From a bacterium (GTDB lineage Bacteria > UBA6262 > WVXT01): DNA of 54,200 nt. A program made the position numbers and the translations under genes. The notes below the pieces were generated by a model that saw only the letters and a program-made list of their open reading frames with translations, did not search any database and had not been told where the DNA came from. The stretch covers positions 1 through 54,200 of the forward strand of contig JBHIBS010000007.1 of the NCBI GenBank assembly GCA_046759165.1. The letters run 5' to 3'. Positions 1 through 10,867 of this stretch are shown piece by piece (positions within the stretch are counted from its first letter, which is position 1; every line of letters starts with the position of its first letter).

Positions 1-192
1 GATTGACCTCTGGGTAAGGAGAAAGTTTACCCAAAGGGGATAGTTTCATATATGTGACCTATTGGGGGAGAGTATAGGTAACAAAACAATTGTGTACTAT
101 ATTAACTGTAATTAATACATAAGATTATAGGCGAGGTTTAAGAATGTGGTGAGATGAAAAACGAAAGTGAAATCTATAGTCCAGATTAAAAT

Positions 193-2145
193 GTGGACTT
201 TAATAAGATAAATAAGGTAAGGATTATCATGCAGTGTAGTCGTTGGAAAATCATCGGAATAGCGTTCCTCGCTCTTAGCCTGTTCTTACAGGTCGGGCTG
301 GTTTTTGTCTCAAATACCAGTGCAGCCGGTTCAGACAGCCTGACTCTGCGAGTGACGTGCGATGGTATTCCACCAGCATCAATTATGGATTTGGTAGCTT
401 CGCCGGGGATAAATGTAGGGGAGATTGCTTTGGCTTGGACTACGCCTGGTGATAATGGTTGGGTTGGACGTCTGCCAGGTTATCCTTACAAAGTGAAGTA
501 CGATACTCGCAGTGTGGCTGAGTTGGGCGGCACAACGACTAGCTGGTGGAATCTGGCAGCTAATGAATGGCCTCAAGGCTGGTCTGCTCTCGACCCAGGC
601 GAATGGGACGATGATCCTACTCTTCATTATCTGGCTGGACTGACACCAGGAATCACTTACTATATTGGTATTCGCGCCATTGATAAAGTGGGCAATGAGG
701 CGCTGAATAATAATGTGGCAAGTGCAATGGCGAAAGAAGATGATACGACTCCTCCGGCGGCGGTGACAGATTTGGTAGCCACGCCAGGGGTGGGAAATGA
801 CAGGATAGATTTGTCCTGGACAGCTCCAGGGGATGATGGATGGCAGGGGATGGCAACAAAATATATCATTAAGTATGCCACTTATAACATCAATGCTGGT
901 AATTTCGGAAGTATAACCGATGTTAAGGAGAGAAGTGTCACTGTGAGCGGAGGTGGTCCCGATAGTGAGACAATAACAGGTTTGGCGAGTGATACTCTCT
1001 ACTACTTTGCTATAAAAACGGAAGACGAAGTTCCCAATGTTTCGGATATCTCCAATATTGCCACTGCTAAGGCTGGAGAGGATAGTCTGCCACCGAGAGA
1101 ACCTGCGGGGATTAAGGGAATTCTAAGCGCCGATCGAAAAACGATGAGCATAAGCTGGAGTGTAGTAACTAAGAATGAAGATGGAACGCCCTGCGAAGAC
1201 CTGGCTGGATACAATATCTATCGGGCTTCGTTTCTGGATGGCGAGTATATTTTGGTGGATTCTGTTGCCGAGGGAGAGTCTTTAGTCTGGGCAGATCCAG
1301 AAAATGTCAAAGGACAAACCTTCTATTATATGGTTAGGGCTAAAGATACTTCTGGCAATCTCAGCAAGATTTCAATGATTGCCGATTCTTCAGTAGATAT
1401 GAATATAATCGCTATTAATGGTGAAGACATGTTAACTCGTATAGTTATTCCAAAAGAGATTAGGCAAATTCTTTACAAGGAGACCAACTCCTACGGCGAC
1501 GACGTGATAATAGAGGTCTTAAGAAGCCAAGAAGAAGAGAATGGAAGAGTAATCAAATCTTACAGTTTCATAGCCAGTGAAGGACAGAGCGGAAAAGAGA
1601 TAAAGGACTTCGTTTTTGCCAAACCACTAGCCGAAATAGTTCTTAATTACGAAGTTGAGGATGGACATGTAAAAGGAGCCTCATCAGTTCCAGAAAACCG
1701 TGCATCTGAACAATTGGCTCTCTTCTGGTTCAATGGTTTAGAGTGGATTAAATTGGGAGGCAAGGTAGATGAATCTTTGCGCCTTGTAAGTATAAAGTCG
1801 AAACGAATTGGTAAGCTTATGATTAAGATGTCTTTCCAGGCCACCTCATTTGGAATCGAATCTATACAACCGGATAAGATATTCACTCCCAATGGAGATG
1901 GCTGGAACGACTTCTTTGAGATTCAATATGCCAATCCCAAGGATGGCTTTGTAAGTGGTAAGATTTACGACCTCAGGGGCGCTCTGGTGGCAGAAATGGA
2001 GAAGGAAGCAAGTGAGGAAACTCTAAGATGGGATGGGAAAGATGCGAATGGCAATCCCGCCCCAGGCGGTGTCTATATTTATCAAATTGAAGTAACTGGT
2101 CCTGAGGAGAAAGTGATCAATGGGACAGTGGTGGTGGCAAGATAA
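193..2145 (+). CDS. Secreted fibronectin type III repeat protein with C-terminal CHU_C/T9SS type-B-like sorting domain (likely start ATG 229)
   Basis: Hydrophobic signal peptide (IIGIAFLALSLFLQVGLV..AA); repeated Fn3 units (PPAxxxDLVAxPG..LxWTxPGDxG); C-terminal IFTPNGDGWNDFF..IYDLRG..WDGKD..GVYIYQI..VVVAR. Confidence 0.85.
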   Translation: MDFNKINKVRIIMQCSRWKIIGIAFLALSLFLQVGLVFVSNTSAAGSDSLTLRVTCDGIPPASIMDLVASPGINVGEIALAWTTPGDNGWVGRLPGYPYKVKYDTRSVAELGGTTTSWWNLAANEWPQGWSALDPGEWDDDPTLHYLAGLTPGITYYIGIRAIDKVGNEALNNNVASAMAKEDDTTPPAAVTDLVATPGVGNDRIDLSWTAPGDDGWQGMATKYIIKYATYNINAGNFGSITDVKERSVTVSGGGPDSETITGLASDTLYYFAIKTEDEVPNVSDISNIATAKAGEDSLPPREPAGIKGILSADRKTMSISWSVVTKNEDGTPCEDLAGYNIYRASFLDGEYILVDSVAEGESLVWADPENVKGQTFYYMVRAKDTSGNLSKISMIADSSVDMNIIAINGEDMLTRIVIPKEIRQILYKETNSYGDDVIIEVLRSQEEENGRVIKSYSFIASEGQSGKEIKDFVFAKPLAEIVLNYEVEDGHVKGASSVPENRASEQLALFWFNGLEWIKLGGKVDESLRLVSIKSKRIGKLMIKMSFQATSFGIESIQPDKIFTPNGDGWNDFFEIQYANPKDGFVSGKIYDLRGALVAEMEKEASEETLRWDGKDANGNPAPGGVYIYQIEVTGPEEKVINGTVVVAR

Positions 2146-2184
2146 GGGAAGAGGGCACCATAAACGGTGCCTGGCCAGATCTGG

Positions 2185-2235
2185 GTTGGTCGACCTTTCC
2201 CGACCCCGTTCCGGTTTCGGAACGAGGCGGGTGAG
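2185..2235. repeat. REP-like palindrome carrying a 30-nt inserted hairpin module (copy 1; copy 2 at 40738-40789)
   Basis: gttggtcgaccttt-cccgaccccgttccggtttcggaacgaggc-gggtgag aligns without gaps through the insert to gtaggtcacccttt-cccgaccccattccggtatcgggacagggc-agagtgac; extra hairpin ggcacc/ggtgcc at 2154-2171. Confidence 0.7.
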
Positions 2236-2250
2236 GGAAAGGAGTAAAAA

Positions 2251-2682
2251 ATGGTAAGAATTAACCATTTAGTTAAGGTTATCTTGCTCTTGTCTGTTTT
2301 CTTCATCTTGGAATGCGCGCAATTGGGAGGAAGGACAAAGGAGTATTATAGAGGCTATGTTGATGGAACATTTCGTGCAACTTCGTTCGAGATTATTAAA
2401 ATCCGACCAGATGAGATATTTACTCCCAATGGCGATGGCTGGAATGACTATTTTGAAATTCAATATACCAACCCATATGATGCTTTGGTAAGCGGTAAGA
2501 TTTACGACCTTAAGGCAAGATTGGTCGCCAATATGAAAAAAGGTGAAGACAACGAGAAACTCATTTGGGATGGAAATGACCTTAACAACAATCCTGTAAC
2601 AGGTGGTTTATATATTTATCAAGTTGAAGTTTCTGGCCCTGAAAATAAAGTAACTAAAGGAATAATAGTTTTAGTGAGATAA
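2251..2682 (+). CDS. Small secreted protein consisting almost only of a CHU_C/T9SS type-B-like domain
   Basis: SD GGAG; signal peptide; FxATSFxI..IxPDxIFTPNGDGWNDxFEIQY, clearly paralogous to the C-terminus of 193..2145. Confidence 0.85.
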   Translation: MVRINHLVKVILLLSVFFILECAQLGGRTKEYYRGYVDGTFRATSFEIIKIRPDEIFTPNGDGWNDYFEIQYTNPYDALVSGKIYDLKARLVANMKKGEDNEKLIWDGNDLNNNPVTGGLYIYQVEVSGPENKVTKGIIVLVR

Positions 2683-2696
2683 GGAGGAAAAGGAAA

Positions 2697-4277
2697 ATGA
2701 GAAGATTAATATCGAAGGGCATCTTGATACTGTTGTTAACTTTCACCTGTAATTTGCCTTCAGCTCTTGCTCAATTTGAGGATTTGGGAGTGGGGGCCCG
2801 AGGAATTGGAATGGGAAATTCCTTTATTGGCTTAGCTGATGATGGGTACTCCATCTACTATAATCCAGCCGGGTTGGGAAGGATCGGCTGGCAGGAGCTG
2901 GTTCTGGACTATGGGAAACTTTATTGGGGACTTGATGATAACTCAAATTTAGGACAAAGTTTTGTTGGTTATGCTCAATCTCTTAAACACATGGGAACGT
3001 TGGGAGTGGGATGGTTAAACTTTGCTTTGACTCGCTATTACAGTGAGGATACTTTTATGCTTGCCTACGGGAAGAGAATTTCCAATTCTAAGGCGGGTTC
3101 GCTTTCGGCAGGGCTGAGTTTCAAGGTTCTCCACAAAGGGTTCAAAAAGACGCTCTATACTGAAAACGCTGTCAATCTCGACACAGGTGACCCTAAGGGA
3201 GGAAGAGACCCTGTCTTTGAAAATGGCTATTCACGAACAGGTTTCAGTACCGACCTTGGACTTCTCTACGACCTGGGTAGACACCATTCCTTTGCCTTAA
3301 CCCTGAACGATATTAACCAGCCTGATATGGGCTTAGCCGACAGGGATAGACTGGCTCTGGGGACAAAGTTAGGTTACGCCTGGAGGGGCAGGACTTTCAA
3401 TATGACATCCGACCTTAGCTCCAAAAGAAGAGATATTACCTTTTCAGCAGGTGCTGAGAAGTGGTTTATGGGCAAGACTTTTGCTGTCAGAGGGGGTTTG
3501 GGTATTGGTACAAGAGAATATGCCAGCCTCTCTCTGGGAGCTAGTTACCGATATAGTAGACTCTTTCAATTTGATTATAGCTTTGTCTATCCTCTGAGAG
3601 GTATTTCAAGTCTTTATGGCTCGCACCGGTTCTCCCTTACCTTAAGATTTGGTGTTAAAGTTCCGGAAGAGGTGCAGGTTGAGGCGGAATTAAGAAAAAC
3701 CAAATCTGAACTCGAATCAGCTAAGGCAGCAGCTGAAAAAGCGAGACTTGACGCTGAGGAGATAATGAAGGCAAAAGAGACATCGGAGAGAAAGATAAAA
3801 GAAGCTCAAGAGAAACAACAACAAACTGAGGAGAAGTTACGTCTCATTGAGGCGAAATTACGTCGAGTTGAAGAAAAATTGCGTCGGGTTTCGGGGAAAG
3901 CCAGAGTAGAACCAGAGGAAAAGGCAAGAGAAAAATTGATTAAAAAGTATTGGAGCCGGGGATTCAGTCACTACCAGAAAGGTAGATATGAGAAGGCTAT
4001 TGCTGAGCTGGAGAGAATCTTGGAATTAGACCCAGATTATCTCGAAGCGAAACAGCTAATAATGCAAGCGAAAGAAAAAATGGAACGAAGAATTGAGGAT
4101 GAAGTTGAGAGACTTTATACTCGTGGACTGAAAGCCTATTCCGAAGGCCATTTAGAGGAAGCGGTTAGAGAATGGGAACAGGCCTTGAAATTGGCCCCCG
4201 GGAATGAAAAGATTCAAAGAGCACTCGAAGGAGCTGAAAAAGAACTTAAATTGAAGGAGGGAAAGAAATGGCATTAA
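2697..4277 (+). CDS. PorV/PorP(SprF)-like outer-membrane beta-barrel fused to coiled coil and TPR repeats
   Basis: SD AGGAGG; signal peptide; GARGIGMG..ADD..IYYNPAGL N-terminal motif; amphipathic strands ending HRFSLTLRF (to ~3650); E/K-rich coiled coil; TPRs (G..HY..GRYEKAI..LELDP). Confidence 0.8.
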   Translation: MRRLISKGILILLLTFTCNLPSALAQFEDLGVGARGIGMGNSFIGLADDGYSIYYNPAGLGRIGWQELVLDYGKLYWGLDDNSNLGQSFVGYAQSLKHMGTLGVGWLNFALTRYYSEDTFMLAYGKRISNSKAGSLSAGLSFKVLHKGFKKTLYTENAVNLDTGDPKGGRDPVFENGYSRTGFSTDLGLLYDLGRHHSFALTLNDINQPDMGLADRDRLALGTKLGYAWRGRTFNMTSDLSSKRRDITFSAGAEKWFMGKTFAVRGGLGIGTREYASLSLGASYRYSRLFQFDYSFVYPLRGISSLYGSHRFSLTLRFGVKVPEEVQVEAELRKTKSELESAKAAAEKARLDAEEIMKAKETSERKIKEAQEKQQQTEEKLRLIEAKLRRVEEKLRRVSGKARVEPEEKAREKLIKKYWSRGFSHYQKGRYEKAIAELERILELDPDYLEAKQLIMQAKEKMERRIEDEVERLYTRGLKAYSEGHLEEAVREWEQALKLAPGNEKIQRALEGAEKELKLKEGKKWH

Positions 4278-4795
4278 AAACTAGATTTTCCTTATTCACT
4301 GGTCTTCTTGTCACTATGATGCTGGCGGCTACAGGCTTTCATTTTCTGACTTATGAGAAGCAAGACGTCGTTAAGGAAACCAGAGAAAATCAAATTGCTT
4401 TAGTTAAGAGTTTGGCAAGCGTGGGCAAGGATTCTTTGCTCAGGAAGGATGACCTATTCCTCGTCAATTACATAAACACGGTAAAAGAAGGAAATAAAAC
4501 AGTAGCCTATGCTCTATTTGTTGATGAGGATAACCGAATATTGGCTCATTCTAATTCACAACTCTTAAGGCAATTTGTAAAGGACCCCATTGGGATAAAG
4601 GCTCAATTAAGCCAGGCTCTCACCATTCAGTCATATCAAACAGGGTCAGAAAAGCCTCCACAGGAAATAGTCGATGTTGCCTTACCGGTCTTTTTAGGTA
4701 AAGAGAGGAAAGCAACTGCCCGTATTGGATTTTCCAAGACTGTTTTAGAGGAAGTAAGTGAAGGCGCTTTGGATAAGACAGGGAGGGGTGTGCTT
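4254..4795 (+). repeat. Direct duplication of RBS and 5' part of the kinase gene (partner ~5554-6095, offset 1300)
   Basis: Colinear match, including an 84-nt identical run 4601-4684 = 5901-5984. Confidence 0.95.
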
Positions 4796-5368
4796 GGTGA
4801 ATATGAGAAGGCTATTAGTGAGCTTAAGGGTGTTCTGGAATTAGATCGGAATCATCTCGAAGCGAAACAGCAAATAAAGGAAACGAAAGAAGAAATGCAA
4901 CAGAGAATTAAGGAAGAAGTTGAGAGACATTATACTCGTGGACTGAAAGCCTATTCCGAACGTCGTTTAGAAGAAGTAGTTAGAGAATGGGAAGAGGCCT
5001 TGAAATTGGACCCCGGGAATGAAAAGATTCGAAAAGCACTGGAAGGAGCTGGAAAAGAGCTTAAATTAGTGAAAATTAGAAAAGATGTGAAGGGAATTCC
5101 AGTATATATAGGGGCGAGCGGAGCAAGGATCTCTAACCAGGACAATGTATCAACTCTCAATTTCACTACCTCCGACCCCATGGGTAGAGTTGTAATTTTT
5201 TACAAAAGAGAGATGGGGAGGAGAGGCTATGGGTTAGTGCGGGACGATTATTCGCCGGGTAGCAACATTGCGCAGCTCCTTTTCTCCAGGGAAGGTAAAG
5301 AATGCACTGTTAATCTGGTTGAGAACGAAAGAGGTGGCGTTAATGTAGCTATTTCGTATAGGGAATAG
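4268..5368 (+). CDS. Chimeric membrane-anchored protein: sensor-kinase periplasmic domain + TPR + small alpha/beta domain
   Basis: 4268-~4795 duplicates 5568-~6095; 4801-5068 duplicates 3986-4253; unique C-terminal domain (IPVYIGA..TSDP..VVIFY..GY); intact ORF. Confidence 0.8.
   Translation: MALKTRFSLFTGLLVTMMLAATGFHFLTYEKQDVVKETRENQIALVKSLASVGKDSLLRKDDLFLVNYINTVKEGNKTVAYALFVDEDNRILAHSNSQLLRQFVKDPIGIKAQLSQALTIQSYQTGSEKPPQEIVDVALPVFLGKERKATARIGFSKTVLEEVSEGALDKTGRGVLGEYEKAISELKGVLELDRNHLEAKQQIKETKEEMQQRIKEEVERHYTRGLKAYSERRLEEVVREWEEALKLDPGNEKIRKALEGAGKELKLVKIRKDVKGIPVYIGASGARISNQDNVSTLNFTTSDPMGRVVIFYKREMGRRGYGLVRDDYSPGSNIAQLLFSREGKECTVNLVENERGGVNVAISYRE
4801..5068 (+). repeat. Direct duplication of the TPR-coding 3' end of the barrel gene (partner 3986-4253, offset 815)
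   Basis: Shared blocks such as atatgagaaggctatt, tatactcgtggactgaaagcctattccgaa, ccccgggaatgaaaagattc. Confidence 0.95.
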
Positions 5369-5567
5369 TGGTGCCGAGTCCCCGTTTTTTTGGCTAAAAT
5401 CACTGAAGCTTTTTACAAACTATGTTTTAAATGTTGCGAGGGTAAAAAATAATAAAAGGATAGAAAAGATAGCTACCGAATTTGTCAAGAAGCTTTCTCA
5501 ATAGGTAATATGATTAGAAAAAGTCAGGACCAGAAATGAGGAATGTTTATGGGATGGAGGGAAAGAG

Positions 5568-7016
5568 ATGGTATTAAAAACTAAATTTTCCTTATTCACT
5601 GGTCTTCTTGTTACTATGGTACTGGCGGCTACAGGCTTGCTTTTTCTGACTTTTGAGAAGCAACACCTGATTAAGGAAACCAGAGAAAATGAAATTGCTT
5701 TAGTTAAGAGTTTAGCAAGCGTCAGTAGGGATGCTATGCTCAGGAACGACGACCTATTCCTCATCAATTACATAAGGGCGATAAAGGAAGGAAATAGAAC
5801 AGTAGCCTATGCTCTATTTGTTGATAACGATAACCGAATATTAGCTCATTCTAATCCGCAACTCTTAAGGCAATTTATAGAGGACCCCATTGGCATAAAT
5901 GCTCAATTAAGCCAGGCTCTCACCATTCAGTCATATCAAACAGGGTCAGAAAAGCCTCCACAGGAAATAGTCGATGTTGCCTTATCGGTCTTTTTAGGTG
6001 AAAAGAGGAAAGGAACTGCCCGTATTGGATTTTCCAAGACTGTTTTAGAAGAAGTAATTAAAGATGCTTTAGATAAGACACGGAGGCGTATTCTTATCGT
6101 TGCATTCGGGGGCTTAATTTTTGGACTTTGGGGTGCTTTTATCCTCTCTGCCACTATGACTGGACCGATCAAATTGTTGGTCAGAGGAGCCGAGCTTATC
6201 GGTCAGGGGAAGTTAGACACTAAAATAAAAGTGGCGAGAAAAGACGAAGTGGGTTGGTTAGCTCGTGAGTTTAACCAAATGGCTGAAAGACTTAAGGAGG
6301 TTGACCAGATGAAAAAGGATTTCGTCTCCAGCGTCACACATGAACTGCGTTCTCCTCTGGCGGCCATTGAAATTTATGTTAATGAGATGCTTGAAGAGGG
6401 GCTTGAAGAATTTGCAAAGACCGGCGTTCAGGATCTAACTATCATAAAAAATAATGCTATTCGTCTTTCACATTTCATCAATGACCTACTGGATACGGCC
6501 AGAATAGAAAGAGGTCAAATGGAGATAGAACCTGGCTTAGTCGATGTATCTTCTTTGATTACGGAAGTAGTTGCTATTTTTATGCCCAATGCAGAAAAAG
6601 AAAAAATCGATTTCAGAATGGAACTGGCAAGCGATTTACCCAAAGTGTCTGCTGATGGAGATAGAATAAGGCAAGTACTCACCAATTTGATAAGTAATGG
6701 CATTAAATTCACTCCTTCCGGGGGCACAGTAAGCATTAGTGCTGAAAAGATGATGGAGAATCCTGAATCTATACAGGTTAGGGTCACGGATACCGGGGTA
6801 GGGATTCCTCCGGGTGACCTGGGTAGAATCTTTGATAAGTTCCACCAGGTAAAAGAGTTTAGGAGAAAAGTGAAAAGGGAAAAGGGGACAGGTTTGGGAC
6901 TCTTCATAGTCAAAAATATTGTGGAGTTACACGGAGGAAAAGTTTGGGCAGAAAGTAAATTGGGTGAGGGAAGCACTTTTTTCTTTACTTTGCCAGTTAA
7001 AAGTGGTAAAATATAA
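5568..7016 (+). CDS. HAMP-domain sensor histidine kinase (2 TM, periplasmic sensor domain, HisKA, HATPase)
   Basis: H-box FVSSVTHELRSPL; N-box QVLTNLISNGIKFT; G1 DTGVGIP; G2 GTGLGL; HAMP DEVGWLAREFNQM. Confidence 0.97.
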   Translation: MVLKTKFSLFTGLLVTMVLAATGLLFLTFEKQHLIKETRENEIALVKSLASVSRDAMLRNDDLFLINYIRAIKEGNRTVAYALFVDNDNRILAHSNPQLLRQFIEDPIGINAQLSQALTIQSYQTGSEKPPQEIVDVALSVFLGEKRKGTARIGFSKTVLEEVIKDALDKTRRRILIVAFGGLIFGLWGAFILSATMTGPIKLLVRGAELIGQGKLDTKIKVARKDEVGWLAREFNQMAERLKEVDQMKKDFVSSVTHELRSPLAAIEIYVNEMLEEGLEEFAKTGVQDLTIIKNNAIRLSHFINDLLDTARIERGQMEIEPGLVDVSSLITEVVAIFMPNAEKEKIDFRMELASDLPKVSADGDRIRQVLTNLISNGIKFTPSGGTVSISAEKMMENPESIQVRVTDTGVGIPPGDLGRIFDKFHQVKEFRRKVKREKGTGLGLFIVKNIVELHGGKVWAESKLGEGSTFFFTLPVKSGKI

Positions 7017-7034
7017 AAACATGGAGGCATTATA

Positions 7035-7430
7035 ATGAAAAAAATTCTTGTTGTTGATGATGAAAAGGACATACTGGATTTGGTGAAACGCCTCTTGACT
7101 CGGGGAGGTTTTAAGGTAATCACTAGCTCGGATGGAAAAGAAGGACTGGAGAAGGTCTACAGCGAAGCGCCGGATTTGATGATTTTGGATATTAACATGC
7201 CGGTGATGGATGGTTGGGAAGTATGTCGAAAGATAAGAGGAGATCCCTTATATAAGCATCTTCCAATTATTATGTTGACCGTAAGGAGAACGAAAGTAGA
7301 CCAGCTCAAAGGACTCGACCTTGGTGGTGACGAATATATCACCAAACCCTTCTATCCGAAGGAGCTCCTTGCTCGAGTTAAAACTGTCCTACAACGTTCT
7401 TCCGGGAGAAGTTCAGGTCCCCGTGGTTGA
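7035..7430 (+). CDS. Single-domain response regulator (REC only)
   Basis: KKILVVDD..LDINMP..MLT..ITKPF; no output domain. Confidence 0.95.
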   Translation: MKKILVVDDEKDILDLVKRLLTRGGFKVITSSDGKEGLEKVYSEAPDLMILDINMPVMDGWEVCRKIRGDPLYKHLPIIMLTVRRTKVDQLKGLDLGGDEYITKPFYPKELLARVKTVLQRSSGRSSGPRG

Positions 7431-7450
7431 GGATGTATCTATTTTGAAAG

Positions 7451-7484
7451 ACCGCTACACGAAGCAGGTGGAGCGGTTTTTTTT
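7451..7484 (+). terminator. Rho-independent terminator after the two-component operon
   Basis: accgct-a-cac/gtg-g-agcggt stem followed by T run. Confidence 0.7.
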
Positions 7485-7537
7485 GTTGCCAGAGCTTGAC
7501 ACAAATCAATTAGTGATATTTGTTCATTAAGTTAAAC

Positions 7538-7588
7538 GTAGGAGCTCAATTCATCGAGCCCGACGGGTATGATAAATCAAACCTCTGC
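7538..7588. repeat. Degenerate inverted REP doublet (GTAG-type REPIN)
   Basis: gtaggagctcaattcatcgagccc, 3-nt spacer, then gggtatgataaatcaaacctctgc (reverse complement gcagaggtttgatttatcataccc, 14/24 identical). Confidence 0.5.
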
Positions 7589-7732
7589 ATAATGAGCTAA
7601 CCGAACCTAATAGAACTTGTAGATATGGAAACATTAATAAAAAAGCGGTCATAGTCTCCAGTGACATAAGAAAAGAATAGGGGAGAGAAAATAGTGCTAC
7701 TAAGTTTGTGGCGGATAAAGGTCTAAACGTTC

Positions 7733-8076
7733 GTGTGTTTGCAAATAGCATCATTTCAATGCGGAAACAATAGAAAGCTACGTGCTGGAACAAATAAGAG
7801 AGGAGTTCTTGAATACGCGACAAGAAAGCAATTGCTATCAGATCTCAAAGAGGAACTTGGCGCCGAGTTTAAAGATAACACGGAAGAATTGAAGCAAATA
7901 GATAACGCCATCAAAGAAAACAAAAAGAAAGTAGGAGGGCTTTTGGATAGTATCGACAAAAGTCACAGAGACATCATAAACGAAAGACTGGATAAGCTAA
8001 GAGCGGAAAGACAATTCCTGGAAGAATAAAGAGAAAAGTTGATCAGTTAGAAAAAGGTACAGTGAATATTCAGGAA
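7733..8076 (+). pseudogene. Probable C-terminal remnant of a large serine recombinase
   Basis: FQC motif, then coiled coil IDNAIKENKKKVGGLLDSI..INERLDKLRAERQFLEE; stop at 8027 with coding-like continuation in another frame (DQLEKGTVNIQE); no catalytic N-terminus. Confidence 0.45.
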
Positions 8077-8107
8077 GGGCTTTTTATGCCTTTCCGCAAA
8101 TCGAGGA

Positions 8108-8308
8108 CATCCTGTTATTGCTGAAAAACCGGCTTGGCCAAAGCTAATAGCATGCAGGAAAAGCTAAAGAAATCAAGCTTTCGGGAATGCCCAATTTTTT
8201 AAGTGCCGAAGAAACGGCTTGTACCTTTGCGGATGTTTTCCTTGGACCAAGGATACTGAAAAGATTTAGTTGCCAAACTGGCGTAACATTGGAACGATAA
8301 GCGTAAAC
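8108..8308 (+). repeat. Structured non-coding repeat, segments A+B contiguous (A also at 16650-16744, B also at 14999-15103)
   Basis: 8152-8205 equals 16691-16744 at 53/54 nt; 8213-8308 matches 15007-15103 with few substitutions and indels; conserved hairpins. Confidence 0.9.
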
Positions 8309-8690
8309 CGGGTAGGGTGACCGGGTGCTAAGTTAACTATAGTAAAAGCTCTTCTTAAAGGTGACTTTTATTAGAGCTTTTAGGGTTCCTTAGAGAATAT
8401 TGTGCTCTTAATAGTTTGATATAATTGAAAAGTTAATGCCATCAAAAGACAAAAAGTGTGTAAATATATAATTTATAGAATAAGCACAAGTTGAAGAGAA
8501 AATAGTAAAAATAAACGACCTTGTTGAAAAATATGGAAGTCAAATAGAGAGAATAAAATATCGGCCAGTTAAGACAGTATAAGAGGATTTATTGCTGGAA
8601 TCGACTTTCTTGGTTTTCTTAGATTTTTTTGAACAAACACAACAGTTGCACCTTATAAGAAGAATTGCACATCTCAGTTCGTTCTACAAG

Positions 8691-8730
8691 GAAGCTTTGT
8701 AGCTCAGTTGATAGAGCGACATTTTCATAA
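8691..8730 (+). pseudogene. tRNA 5'-half fragment (D-arm to anticodon loop; CAT at positions 34-36, otherwise Arg-like)
   Basis: TA-GCTC-AGTTGATA-GAGC-G-ACATT-TT-CAT-AA in canonical spacing; anticodon stem unpaired and no T-arm follows. Confidence 0.6.
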
Positions 8731-8992
8731 GGCAAAACTGGGAGATAGAAGCAAAAGTCCCTGAAAGGGGGAAAAATCTGAACTTTTTCCATGATCTTCA
8801 TTTTGGCCTTCCAAATACGAGGAAAAACAAAGGATCTCTAATATTTTACTCCCTTAGAAACGAAATTATCCACATCGCTGTCCGGTAAGATTCGTCTTCT
8901 TCATTTGCCCTTAAGTACCCCGTTCCTCAGACTAGTCACTCACGTCCTCTTATTCTTCGCTCTTCCTCAGACGACCTGGGCGTTCGCCCCCT

Positions 8993-9016
8993 TTCGAGTC
9001 TCTCAGCGGGCTCGCA
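8993..9016 (+). pseudogene. tRNA 3'-end fragment (T-loop to acceptor), att-site-like
   Basis: TTCGAGT-CTCTC-AGCGGGC-TCGCA without a 5' T-stem, directly followed by a terminator. Confidence 0.45.
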
Positions 9017-9017
9017 T

Positions 9018-9054
9018 GGGAGCCAACCCGCCAAGCCGGGTTGGCTCCCTTTTT
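9018..9054 (+). terminator. Strong Rho-independent terminator
   Basis: Perfect 13-bp stem gggagccaacccg/cgggttggctccc, 6-nt loop, T5. Confidence 0.85.
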
Positions 9055-9577
9055 GTATAAAGTCGTAACCAAATTAAAAATAGAATTTATGACTGCCCGG
9101 TTTATTTACTCTTAGATTTGGGAAATGTTGAACCATTCTCACCTGTAACATACTGATTAGAAGTTAATCATAATAGTTTTTTTGGCTTGCCTTTTATGAG
9201 AATTTTTAGTACAATTAAAAAAATTAAAAATGAATATTTGTGCTAAAATCATATTTGCCAAGAACCAAATTTTATTGCCTAAGGCCAAAGATTGTCAGGT
9301 TATAAGTATGGTTTCCGGAAGCTAAGAAATTTCCACCCATGTTAACGCTAAACATACTGCAAACCAATAGTCTATTATTAGATAACCTAACCCTAAATAA
9401 AAAAAGGCGACATAGCAGTTTGAGTAGTGGTATAGCTGAATTTGGTTCGGAAATACTCCCAAGTTTGGAAGGATGTGAGGGACAAGTTCTGATATAAAGA
9501 AGTTGCGTGACACTTCAGGAGGAGAATCTTTTAACAGGGATGCCGCATTGTACGGGTTTTGAGAAAAAACGTATGAC

Positions 9578-10867
9578 ATGAAGATATTCAGCGAGAAAAA
9601 ATTTCACTATACTCTTATAGGCATTTTAGCAATTTTGGTTTTCTCTCAAATTGCTTTCGCACAGAATAAATCGACGTTAACTCTATCTGACGCAGTGCAA
9701 ATCGCTCTTAAAAACAATAGGGAAATTGCTATTTTGCAGAAGGATATCGAGAAGGCGAAGGGAGAGAAAAAAGCGGCTTCCCGAATCTTCCAGCACAATC
9801 CGGAAATAGCAGGGGAAGTGAAAAATAGAAGAAGTGGTAATCAGAACATTAGGGATTTCGAGTTTTCTCTTTCTCAATCCGTGGGGATAGGAAGACAAAG
9901 ACATTATCGAATGAAGATAGCCGAACTTTACCTCCTAAAAGCCCAGTTTCAACTGGAAAACGAGAAATTTACAATAGCTGAAAAGATCAAAGGCATATTT
10001 ATTGACTTGACCGCTTTGAATGAAAAACTTCAAGCCGTCCAAGATATACTGGAAGTTGAGGAAGGTCTTTTCCAATGGCTCACCATTCGTTCAGCTCAAG
10101 GGGAGATTTCATCAGTGGCATTAAATACCGTAGGGCTGGAAGTTTTGAGAACTAAAGAAAAGCTTTTGGATATCCACCGGGCGATACTTAGCAAAAAGCG
10201 AGGATTGGAGTGGGTGATGAACACCTCCCTGCCTGAAGGTAGGGAAATTGTCTATGGCTGGCCAGAATTTCCCGCTAATATCCCACGTGAGGAACTTGAA
10301 AGATATGCTGAAGAACATAATCCAGATGTTAAAATTGCTTTGGTAGATTCAAGAATAGCAGAAGCTTCATTGAAGCTGGCGAAAGCCGGGCACGTTATTC
10401 CCGGTCTCAGTTTTTCCTTTATACGTTCGCGGGAAGATAACGATAATCTTATCGGCTTCGGTTCCTCTCTCCCTCTGCCTCTTTTCAATCGGAGGACAGG
10501 AGAGATAACCACCGCCAAGGCGGAAAAAGAAAGGGCTACTCTGGAGCTTAAGCGAATCCATGAAAAGATTTTCTCAGAGATAAATAGATACTGTGAGTCT
10601 TCCACGATTTTAGAGCAGCAAAGGAAACTATTTGTTGAAAAAATTCTGCCAATCCCCCAACATAACCTGGATCAAATCAAGATGCGCTACCAAAGGGGAG
10701 AGCTTGACCTTATGACCCTTGAAAGGTTTTGGGATAGCTGGATAGAGACGAAAATAGAATACGCAGAGTTTCTGCAACAATACTATCATATGCTCTGCCG
10801 AATTGAGTTACTCTCAGGAGCAGAGTTAAAAAAGATTGTCAAAAAATATGAGCCAAAGGAGCAATGA
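9578..10867 (+). CDS. TolC/CzcC-family outer membrane efflux protein
   Basis: Signal peptide (AFA); LTLSDAVQIALKNN; SLPLPLFNRRxGEI; RYQRGE motifs; operon with MFP and RND. Confidence 0.92.
   Translation: MKIFSEKKFHYTLIGILAILVFSQIAFAQNKSTLTLSDAVQIALKNNREIAILQKDIEKAKGEKKAASRIFQHNPEIAGEVKNRRSGNQNIRDFEFSLSQSVGIGRQRHYRMKIAELYLLKAQFQLENEKFTIAEKIKGIFIDLTALNEKLQAVQDILEVEEGLFQWLTIRSAQGEISSVALNTVGLEVLRTKEKLLDIHRAILSKKRGLEWVMNTSLPEGREIVYGWPEFPANIPREELERYAEEHNPDVKIALVDSRIAEASLKLAKAGHVIPGLSFSFIRSREDNDNLIGFGSSLPLPLFNRRTGEITTAKAEKERATLELKRIHEKIFSEINRYCESSTILEQQRKLFVEKILPIPQHNLDQIKMRYQRGELDLMTLERFWDSWIETKIEYAEFLQQYYHMLCRIELLSGAELKKIVKKYEPKEQ

Follow-up and report, generated by a model that had tools for sequence, protein, structure and literature searches.

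A barrel-TPR gene coupled to a Cache kinase gene in an adhesin cluster: a candidate relay from the outer to the inner membrane

How the state of an adhesin at the outer surface reaches the cell interior is a largely open question, and the known relays (NlpE-CpxA, RcsF, FecA-FecR and PorA-PorY) are few and each mechanistically distinct. The question is raised by a cluster of six genes on the + strand (193-7430) of the window, by which we mean the whole stretch of 54,200 nucleotides analysed here (positions 1 to 54,200 of contig JBHIBS010000007.1, assembly GCA_046759165.1, GTDB lineage UBA6262; WVXT01). The genes encode, in order, an adhesin, a small sorting-domain protein, a membrane barrel with a TPR-like tail (barrel-TPR), a mosaic protein, a histidine kinase and a REC protein. 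We give an even chance to the reading that this cluster is a cargo-specific surface-anchoring module of a reduced pathway resembling a type IX secretion system (T9SS), genetically hard-wired to an inner-membrane sensor. The linkage of barrel and kinase is real and old, and the barrel tail (about 125 residues) and the sensor (about 150 residues), both small and soluble, offer a concrete pair of domains for a candidate new relay. A preliminary description of the window had placed the barrel gene in one run with a HAMP kinase and a REC-only regulator, and the open reading frames (ORFs) and Pfam domains gave the same layout:

193..2145, + strand: fn3 adhesin, 650 aa (PF13585, PF00041, TIGR04131)
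2251..2682, + strand: small sorting-domain protein, 143 aa (PF13585, TIGR04131)
2697..4277, + strand: barrel-TPR protein, 526 aa (PF11751, TPR families, AlphaFold2 (AF2) model, Foldseek)
4268..5368, + strand: mosaic (chimera) gene, 366 aa (copy of the first transmembrane segment (TM1) and sCache, truncated TPR copy, PF27226)
5568..7016, + strand: sensor histidine kinase (Pfam domains, catalytic columns)
7035..7430, + strand: REC-only response regulator, 131 aa (PF00072, 105.8 bits)

Proteins of the cluster

The barrel-TPR protein was modelled with AF2 from 37 aligned orthologues (predicted local distance difference test (pLDDT) 77.3, predicted template modelling score 0.53). Short N-terminal helices precede 14 strands over residues 67-318, the last of which (309-318) ends in ...SLTLRF. 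The barrel domain (aa 25-318) has the FadL/PorV/PorP fold, and the top Foldseek matches were FadL (2r88_A) and the T9SS PorV chains 8gl6_F and 6h3i_F (E ~1e-10); model and matches thus describe a 14-stranded FadL-like barrel with an N-terminal plug segment. PF11751 was matched above its cut-off (25.9 bits, cut-off 22.3), while TIGR03519 (26.6, cut-off 90.55) and NF033709 (63, cut-off 90) both stayed below. The family counts 494 matches in size classes of about 390, 515-530, 680 and 842 aa, and some of its members end in OmpA or LysM instead of TPR.

Behind the barrel, the model has helices at 324-358 and 364-398, followed by five TPR-like helices at 401-524; the Pfam TPR matches begin at residue 418. 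The model was viewed at the level of secondary structure, and this stalk could be a rod, a hairpin or a coiled coil. Helices and TPRs after the barrel had been announced in the preliminary description and were found, but the some 90 residues of coiled coil described there turned out as two 35-residue helices with a break. As the number of strands is even, the tail of the barrel would lie on the periplasmic side, and by the model stalk and TPR should therefore both be in the periplasm.

Two genes for putative cargo precede the barrel gene. The adhesin (193-2145) has a signal peptide, fn3/Ig-like repeats and a C-terminal CHU_C or T9SS type-B sorting domain (PF13585 47.7 bits, cut-off 27; TIGR04131 36.7 bits, cut-off 35); PF00041 was also matched. 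The 143-aa protein consists of a signal/transmembrane (TM) segment, a short linker and a type-B sorting domain (PF13585 47.3 bits, TIGR04131 36.4 bits, same cut-offs of 27 and 35), and nothing more. Both are secreted proteins with a C-terminal match above the cut-off and were assigned to the type-B sorting class on that basis. The 3′ part of the small gene repeats the 3′ end of the adhesin gene (1864-2147 and 2401-2684, 70% nt identity), with 64% aa identity between the 143-aa protein and the sorting domain of the adhesin, and is an old partial tandem duplicate. It is 75-85% identical among close relatives. The adhesin gene upstream of the barrel is conserved in relatives too, and a type-B cargo gene lies directly 5′ of the barrel gene in the window and in nearly all relatives, which is the adjacency of PorP/SprF-type barrels to cargo whose C-terminal domain (CTD) is of type B.

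The kinase is made up of TM1, a periplasmic sCache_3_2 domain (about 29-176), TM2, HAMP, HisKA (46.8 bits) and HATPase (110.4 bits). Across 19 kinase orthologues, neither H258 nor any of the remaining catalytic columns varies. The sequence of the sensor domain had no match in the PDB at E values up to 10. With the H-box of HisKA and the HATPase in the kinase and a REC domain in the next gene, the pair has the sequence features of a classical two-component system. The receiver gene is the most conserved of the cluster (79-88% identity among close relatives, 66% at locus L096), and its product is a REC domain alone, without output domain. PorX carries an output domain, unlike this protein, which is accordingly not a PorXY-type regulator (REC plus an enzymatic or other output domain in contact with the T9SS and SigP). 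The REC-only regulator would act through protein contacts, since it has no DNA-binding domain.

Linkage of barrel and sensor genes

That barrel and transducer belong together, as the preliminary description held, is borne out by synteny. A barrel-TPR gene followed by a gene for a Cache/HAMP transducer, with stop/start overlap, recurs in close relatives, in distant metagenome-assembled genomes (MAGs) labelled Elusimicrobia, in a second module family and with three different outputs. Close homologues of the barrel were found on 56 metagenome contigs, 33 of them non-redundant and with at least 600 nt downstream. An sCache kinase is encoded directly downstream in 21 of these 33, mostly with the REC gene next; a mosaic gene takes this place once (L086; L-numbers denote loci on contigs of metagenomes or relatives), and neither is found in 11. 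The kinase ATG overlaps the barrel stop codon by 4 nt on every contig on which both ends were read (23/23). The kinase-less barrels are a paralogous clade that coexists with the kinase-linked clade in the genomes G004 and G010, which rules out that the two clades are orthologues in different lineages.

Among distant loci (barrel at least 33% identical), a HAMP transducer is encoded at most 3 kb downstream in 12 of 26 that could be evaluated. The following orders were read from Pfam domains:

L010: barrel-TPR, sCache_3_2 kinase, REC
L011: barrel-OmpA, dCache_1 kinase, REC-only protein
L023: barrel-LysM, kinase without sensor
L034: barrel-LysM, kinase
L028, L032, L039, L040 and L041: barrel-TPR, HAMP kinase
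L020 (9081-12598): barrel-TPR, propeller+OmpA protein, sCache_3_2-HAMP-SpoIIE (PP2C) phosphatase

At L039, the N-terminal 79 residues of the kinase gave an alignment with the sensor of the window at 89.5% probability. At L040 (10357-11883), the kinase gene is followed by one whose product unites FliF C-terminal with FliG middle/C-terminal domains in a single protein.

The same linkage is seen from the side of the sensor. The host genome (G000; C6, C14 and C32 are other contigs of it) is 92% complete, measures 1.885 Mb and has only 15 kinase-core places in total, a figure to be set beside the 12 of 26 distant loci above. PF17203 was matched by exactly three of its proteins, the kinase, the mosaic and a protein on contig 14, all in barrel-TPR clusters. 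The cluster on contig 14 (G000:C14:12250-21990; L143 3250-12990, - strand) is a second adhesin module of the genome, with genes for a 1271-aa propeller adhesin with CHU_C, a barrel-TPR protein (684 aa), a propeller+OmpA protein resembling PorE and an sCache_3_2-HAMP-GAF-GGDEF protein, in this order; at both of the last two junctions the genes overlap by 4 nt.

The host does not belong to the Bacteroidota, and its GTDB phylum comprises 12 species genomes. In the 11 other ones, 27 places with sensor homologues were found and all were fetched. Four belong to the orthologous cluster (group A, 68-74% identity) and have the barrel just upstream in 4/4. Ten more diverged sensors (group C, 30-42% identity) lie directly downstream of a barrel-TPR gene in 10/10 places, with a start/stop overlap in L158 and L165 and a distance of 2 nt in L166; the TPRs were seen by tblastn in all except L166, where Pfam found them. 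Eight places (group B, 43-49%) hold no barrel, and five were too short or uninformative (L159, L164, L169-L171). NCBI labels of close relatives conflict (‘Clostridia bacterium’, ‘Elusimicrobia bacterium’, ‘bacterium’).

The barrel on contig 14 is 54% identical to that of the window and its sensor 33%; for group C, the barrels are 24-26% identical (with the exception of a short partial match of 36% in L167) and the sensors 30-42%. A simple co-duplication of barrel and sensor was considered and is not supported by these identities, which were compared as ranks and not as trees. Since adjacency has persisted in two or more module families that diverged deeply, and with three outputs, it points to the input side of the sensor. 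One may go further and see in barrel-TPR the outer-membrane half of modular outside-in devices, in which the TPR would dock on sCache-HAMP proteins with swapped outputs (histidine kinase, diguanylate cyclase, PP2C phosphatase) and relay whether the adhesin is loaded, pulled or missing to phosphorylation or to cyclic di-GMP; this generalisation, which would amount to adhesin-coupled surface sensing in a T9SS-like pathway outside the Bacteroidota, we consider possible but rather doubtful.

Cache domains are typically small-molecule sensors. The kinase could thus sense a small molecule through its Cache pocket and be co-transcribed with the adhesin operon or regulate it, while stalk and TPR would be a structural tether or scaffold, in analogy to PorE and to those sister barrels whose tails are OmpA or LysM. 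We attach little probability to this arrangement without coupling. It agrees with the many barrel-TPR paralogues without an adjacent sensor, with the fast evolution of the TPR and with homologous barrels that end in peptidoglycan-binding OmpA or LysM. It would also resemble the PorP-PorE complex (excerpts of PMC9143113), where PorE has the order TPR-WD40-CRD-OmpA_C (excerpts of PMC12773672). It fits poorly with a REC-only regulator that cannot itself control transcription, with one sensor family tied to barrel-TPR despite three unrelated outputs (kinase, GGDEF, SpoIIE), which again indicates the input side, and with the 3/3 sCache_3_2 domains of the genome in barrel-TPR clusters and the constant stop/start overlap.

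The sensor might also receive the cargo itself. In P. gingivalis (Porphyromonas gingivalis) the CTD of the small cargo protein PorA is a periplasmic ligand of the kinase PorY and an activator of the PorXY-SigP pathway, as the excerpts of Ito et al. 2025 (PMC12152298) describe. By analogy, the ligand of sCache could be a sorting domain in periplasmic transit, chiefly that of the small CTD-only protein (2251-2682), which would be a dummy cargo reporting the capacity for export and anchoring, the TPR being a scaffold, a cargo receptor or a wall tether; we hold this to be unlikely. The small gene is old and conserved, and among the close homologues with enough flank it is present in 17/17 kinase-linked and 0/7 kinase-less loci. 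Small CTD proteins also precede the barrel at the kinase-linked loci L023, L028, L032, L039 and L041. The split of 17 against 7 is, however, one between two paralogous clades and essentially one evolutionary event. Moreover, group C, the GGDEF module on contig 14 and the loci L022, L034 and L040 have a linked sensor but no cargo gene 5′ of the barrel other than a large one, and at L166 this place is taken by a 270-aa ORF without assignment. The gene adjacent and translationally coupled to the sensor gene is always that of the barrel and never a CTD gene. Finally, the CTD of PorA is of type A, and PorY and PorX are unlinked to cargo.

Origin of the mosaic gene

The gene between barrel and kinase had been described as a fusion of exactly the kinase sensor to exactly the barrel TPR, and the fusion had been taken to mark interacting partners. 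A fusion of the two is real and far beyond chance. The match to the TPR is not exact, as the junction removes helix A of TPR1, and beside the sensor and TPR parts a third one (265-366, from contig 6) had been overlooked. Residues 1-176 of the mosaic share 80% identity with kinase 1-176 and stop just short of TM2. The next part, 177-261, matches barrel 429-513 at 71% identity, and the last, 265-366, the C-terminal end of a TM protein of 234 aa encoded on contig 6, at 85%. The protein has no kinase part, and all of it except the TM anchor is predicted to be periplasmic. The elements of the rearrangement are:

3981..4795, no strand given: first copy of an 815-bp duplicated unit (repeat spacings 815 and 1300; junction alignments)
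4796..5067, + strand: second copy of the TPR part, within the mosaic gene (85% nt identity to 3981-4252)
5068..5552, no strand given: 485-bp insertion (matches to contig 6)
5378..5437, no strand given: short dispersed repeat (matches on 29 other contigs of the genome)
5553..6095, + strand: second copy of gene boundary and sensor (DNA repeats, junction alignments)

Two DNA repeats were found, 4253-4552 with 5553-5852 (89%) and 3981-4252 with 4796-5067 (85%), at spacings of 1300 and 815 nt, and 815 + 485 = 1300. The duplicated unit runs from helix B of TPR1 over the gene boundary with its ribosome-binding site to TM1-sCache, up to the codon before TM2. Judged from these repeats, the mosaic arose by one 815-bp tandem duplication across the barrel/kinase boundary and a subsequent 485-bp insertion. 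The insertion follows the second TPR copy and precedes the second ribosome-binding site, and it supplies the last 101 codons of the mosaic gene, its stop codon and the spacer 5′ of the kinase gene. Its positions 5072-5379 match G000:C6:20297-20604(-) at 90.6% nt identity and 5443-5552 match C6:19484-19590 at 82%. The copy at 5553-6095, now the 5′ end of the intact kinase gene, has retained the former barrel 3′ end together with the ribosome-binding site GGAGGGAAAGA. An assembly artefact was rejected as the source of the mosaic, as the copies are 85-90% identical and not identical, and the independent contig L086 and the protein P0126 carry the same mosaic.

The mosaic is young. Among 77 matches in 5.8 billion clustered proteins, only P0126 (95% identity) and P0127 (79%, the L086 gene) are full-length; each of the others covers one of the three parts, and none of the 77 is an independent Cache-TPR fusion (searched range 201-641 aa). 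The tree of the sensor-coding DNA is (window kinase, (window mosaic, L086 mosaic)), with supports of 99/99 and 90/83, which puts the event on the branch of window and L086 only. The ratio omega of non-synonymous to synonymous change between the window and L086 mosaics is 0.50 (sensor 0.69, TPR 0.50, tail 0.33), against 0.18 for the barrel part (window and L086) and 0.24 for the whole kinase (window and L088). There is nevertheless a synonymous excess, 46 synonymous to 86 non-synonymous changes on 241.8 and 844.2 sites (binomial p = 0.00066). The mosaic has an open frame of 366 codons in the window and of 362 codons in L086, and it is open in P0126 too. Of the invariant sensor positions, 39/47 are retained in the window and 41/47 in L086, and of the conserved TPR positions 18/23 and 19/23. 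Both mosaics have the changes K440G/E, I441V, P446R and G484R, and P446R and G484R are losses of structural TPR residues. The substitution pattern points to a young gene under relaxed yet real constraint, which could be a modulator or a decoy, or merely a tolerated by-product.

As evidence of interaction the fusion is worth little. A tandem duplication that spans two neighbouring genes must yield a frame with the N-terminus of the second gene and the C-terminus of the first, and a Rosetta-stone argument calls for fusions that are independent or widespread, while this one is a local duplication with an insertion, confined to the window and two close relatives and with TPR1 cut. That the fusion was selected since Cache and TPR interact, and so is itself evidence of contact, we regard as very improbable. 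The open frames, the significant synonymous excess and the retained sensor positions speak for this reading. The necessity of such a product after a single duplication, the junction inside TPR1, the two structural residues lost in both mosaics, the raised omega and the restriction to one branch all speak against selection for contact. The claim of the preliminary description that the fusion marks interacting partners was therefore given up. The mosaic shows cleanly how a tandem duplication over a gene boundary can give rise to a new gene, and it warns against taking such fusions as evidence of interaction. Since the small sorting-domain gene is a product of partial duplication as well, the cluster has made new genes in this way at least twice.

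The donor locus on contig 6 (G000:C6:20297-21012; L142 5309-6013, - strand) encodes a conserved TM protein of 234 aa whose C-terminus carries a PF27226 domain (AF_1845, START-like), a label which for the mosaic rests on the precomputed PF27226 assignment and an Atlas lead with scores under 0.9. The donor gene adjoins parB/parA/rsmG, and its family is widespread among these MAGs. The dispersed repeat directly after the mosaic stop codon (5378-5437) has matches of about 42-63 nt and 75-88% identity on the 29 other contigs; with dozens of genomic copies it could be a terminator or an element like a repetitive extragenic palindrome (REP) or a miniature inverted-repeat transposable element (MITE).

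On the 3′ side of the REC gene follow 2.1 kb (7430-9578) with a G+C content of about 0.38 and no convincing ORF. Segments of it recur elsewhere in the genome and on related contigs, and a frame of 98 aa (7733-8029) resembles a gene remnant. A scan of 1-9700 for promoters and terminators gave counts no higher than those of shuffled sequences (22 against 17.2 ± 3.6 and 7 against 8.1 ± 3.7); the sole strong-looking hairpin, at 9018-9049 (+), is a putative terminator. An Rfam search of the whole window gave no matches.

Contact between TPR and sensor and comparison with known systems

A contact between the barrel tail and the kinase, as the preliminary description had proposed, was assessed by complex prediction. 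The sensor (29-176, alignment of 19 rows) was modelled with the TPR (403-526, 37 rows) beside three controls. The pair scored 0.44 and the best of the three controls 0.01, a verdict of ‘weak support’; the runs agreed in 100% of contacts and the partners had a pLDDT of at least 87. In calibration, 58 of 80 solved complexes reached the mark, as did 2 of 110 mismatches; only 7 of the 80, but both of the mismatches, did so with scores of 0.60 or less, and the counts are only rough for this run with its custom alignments. The proposed contact thus passed, weakly, with a score in the low band of the calibration, and this weak pass counts to the same degree against a kinase that is uncoupled from the barrel. 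A partial Mantel test over 17 loci, given the barrel and the kinase core, gave r = 0.30 (p = 0.046) for TPR and sensor and r = 0.30 (p = 0.05) for stalk and sensor, against controls of r = -0.07 (TPR and kinase core) and r = -0.09 (barrel and sensor). Taking complex prediction, Mantel test and synteny together, direct docking of the TPR on sCache stands at about even odds.

A number of observations weigh against this docking or against the wider reading of the cluster. A score of 0.44 falls in a band where wrong predictions outnumber right ones unless there is a good prior. The Mantel (mirror-tree) signal is borderline, and as the coding regions of TPR and sensor adjoin on the DNA, recombination tracts could yield it. 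The TPR is the fastest-evolving part (omega 0.43-0.75, against 0.16-0.18 for the barrel). The 11 kinase-less loci among the 33 close homologues keep stalk and TPR, and the 842-aa barrel-TPR paralogues (L012, L015-L017) and the 391-aa protein of L013 have no kinase nearby. The group B sensors lie among REC genes, away from any barrel. Kinases also follow barrels with OmpA (L011) or LysM tails (L023, L034), at L023 a kinase without periplasmic sensor, so that linkage does not require contact of TPR and sensor.

Further points concern the secretion pathway. Contig 32 (L144 2099-13416) encodes a SprA/Sov-like protein of 1677 aa (164.8 bits, cut-off 200), a barrel of the PorV/PorQ family (61.6, cut-off 90) and a subtilisin with a type-A-like sorting domain, beside lptF/lptG (LptF/LptG). 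This gene set suggests that the host is a diderm with a reduced T9SS-like set, and it counts on the other side that the SprA and PorV matches are below the curated cut-offs. Searches of the 92%-complete genome for the GldL and GldM families gave no match, which does not speak for their absence, as control genomes were equally silent; no search was made for GldK and GldN.

If the cluster is a sensor-coupled anchoring module, the following mechanism may be proposed. The adhesin and the small protein would be type-B cargo, held at the surface by the 14-stranded PorP/PorV-like barrel. The C-terminus of the barrel would extend into the periplasm by a helical stalk with TPR-like repeats at its tip, and this tip would dock on the periplasmic sCache of the kinase. 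An altered barrel-cargo complex would then alter the activity of the kinase and with it the phosphorylation of the REC-only regulator. The mosaic is a recent addition that the ancestral device lacked, a Cache-TPR-START-like protein anchored in the membrane, periplasmic and without kinase. Such a system is a plausible, undescribed variant of outer-to-inner-membrane signalling; the titles and abstracts searched yielded no Cache kinase coupled to a barrel of the PorP/PorV fold that has a TPR fused on. The T9SS-type sorting domains, PorP/PorV-like barrels and SprA-like protein of this small uncultured phylum, in which no GldL/GldM motor was found (controls silent), also bear on how much of the T9SS is required for sorting.

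Several known systems are comparable. In the TonB-dependent transducers (FecA-FecR-FecI), a periplasmic extension of the barrel contacts an inner-membrane transducer and reports occupancy of the barrel. FecA signals through an N-terminal extension of a 22-stranded barrel to an anti-sigma partner and depends on TonB, whereas the tail found here is C-terminal, helical and TPR-like on a 14-stranded barrel, and its presumed partner is a Cache-HAMP kinase. The cluster is not of this class, and Pfam and HMM scans of its six proteins gave no matches to the families of TonB-dependent receptors, their signalling domains or anti-sigma factors.

In NlpE-CpxA and RcsF-IgaA-RcsCD, relays from an outer-membrane lipoprotein to an inner-membrane sensor cited in the excerpts of PMC12152298, an outer-membrane-anchored protein reaches an inner-membrane two-component sensor and reports the state of envelope or surface, as is proposed here. 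NlpE and RcsF are lipoproteins and not barrels with a fused stalk and TPR, have no cargo or adhesin partner and no Cache sensor, and their genes are not adjacent. The PorA-PorY-PorX-SigP system shares with the present proposal a kinase that receives a periplasmic protein signal from its own cargo pathway and a small protein dominated by its sorting domain. In the excerpts of the same paper, PorY and PorX are orphans linked neither to cargo nor to a barrel, the PorA CTD is of type A, and no barrel tail takes part.

The closest likeness is to PorP/SprF and the PorP-PorE-PG1035 complex. In the Bacteroidota, barrels of the PorP type hold type-B cargo, and PorP is found in complex with PorE (excerpts of Gorasia et al. 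2022, PMC9143113), which is built as TPR-WD40-CRD-OmpA_C (PMC12773672, in part). As far as these excerpts go, the systems share a FadL/PorV-fold barrel gene directly after the gene of a type-B surface protein and a periplasmic module, TPR or OmpA, below the barrel, and the cluster on contig 14 even has the PorE-like propeller+OmpA protein. They differ in the host, which here is not of the Bacteroidota, with GldL and GldM not found (controls silent) and a SprA-like protein below the cut-off, and in the translational coupling of the sensor gene to the barrel gene. There the module is a separate lipoprotein; here the TPR, or OmpA or LysM in homologues, is fused to the barrel. By this analogy the barrel of the window looks like a PorP with a PorE-like module fused on.

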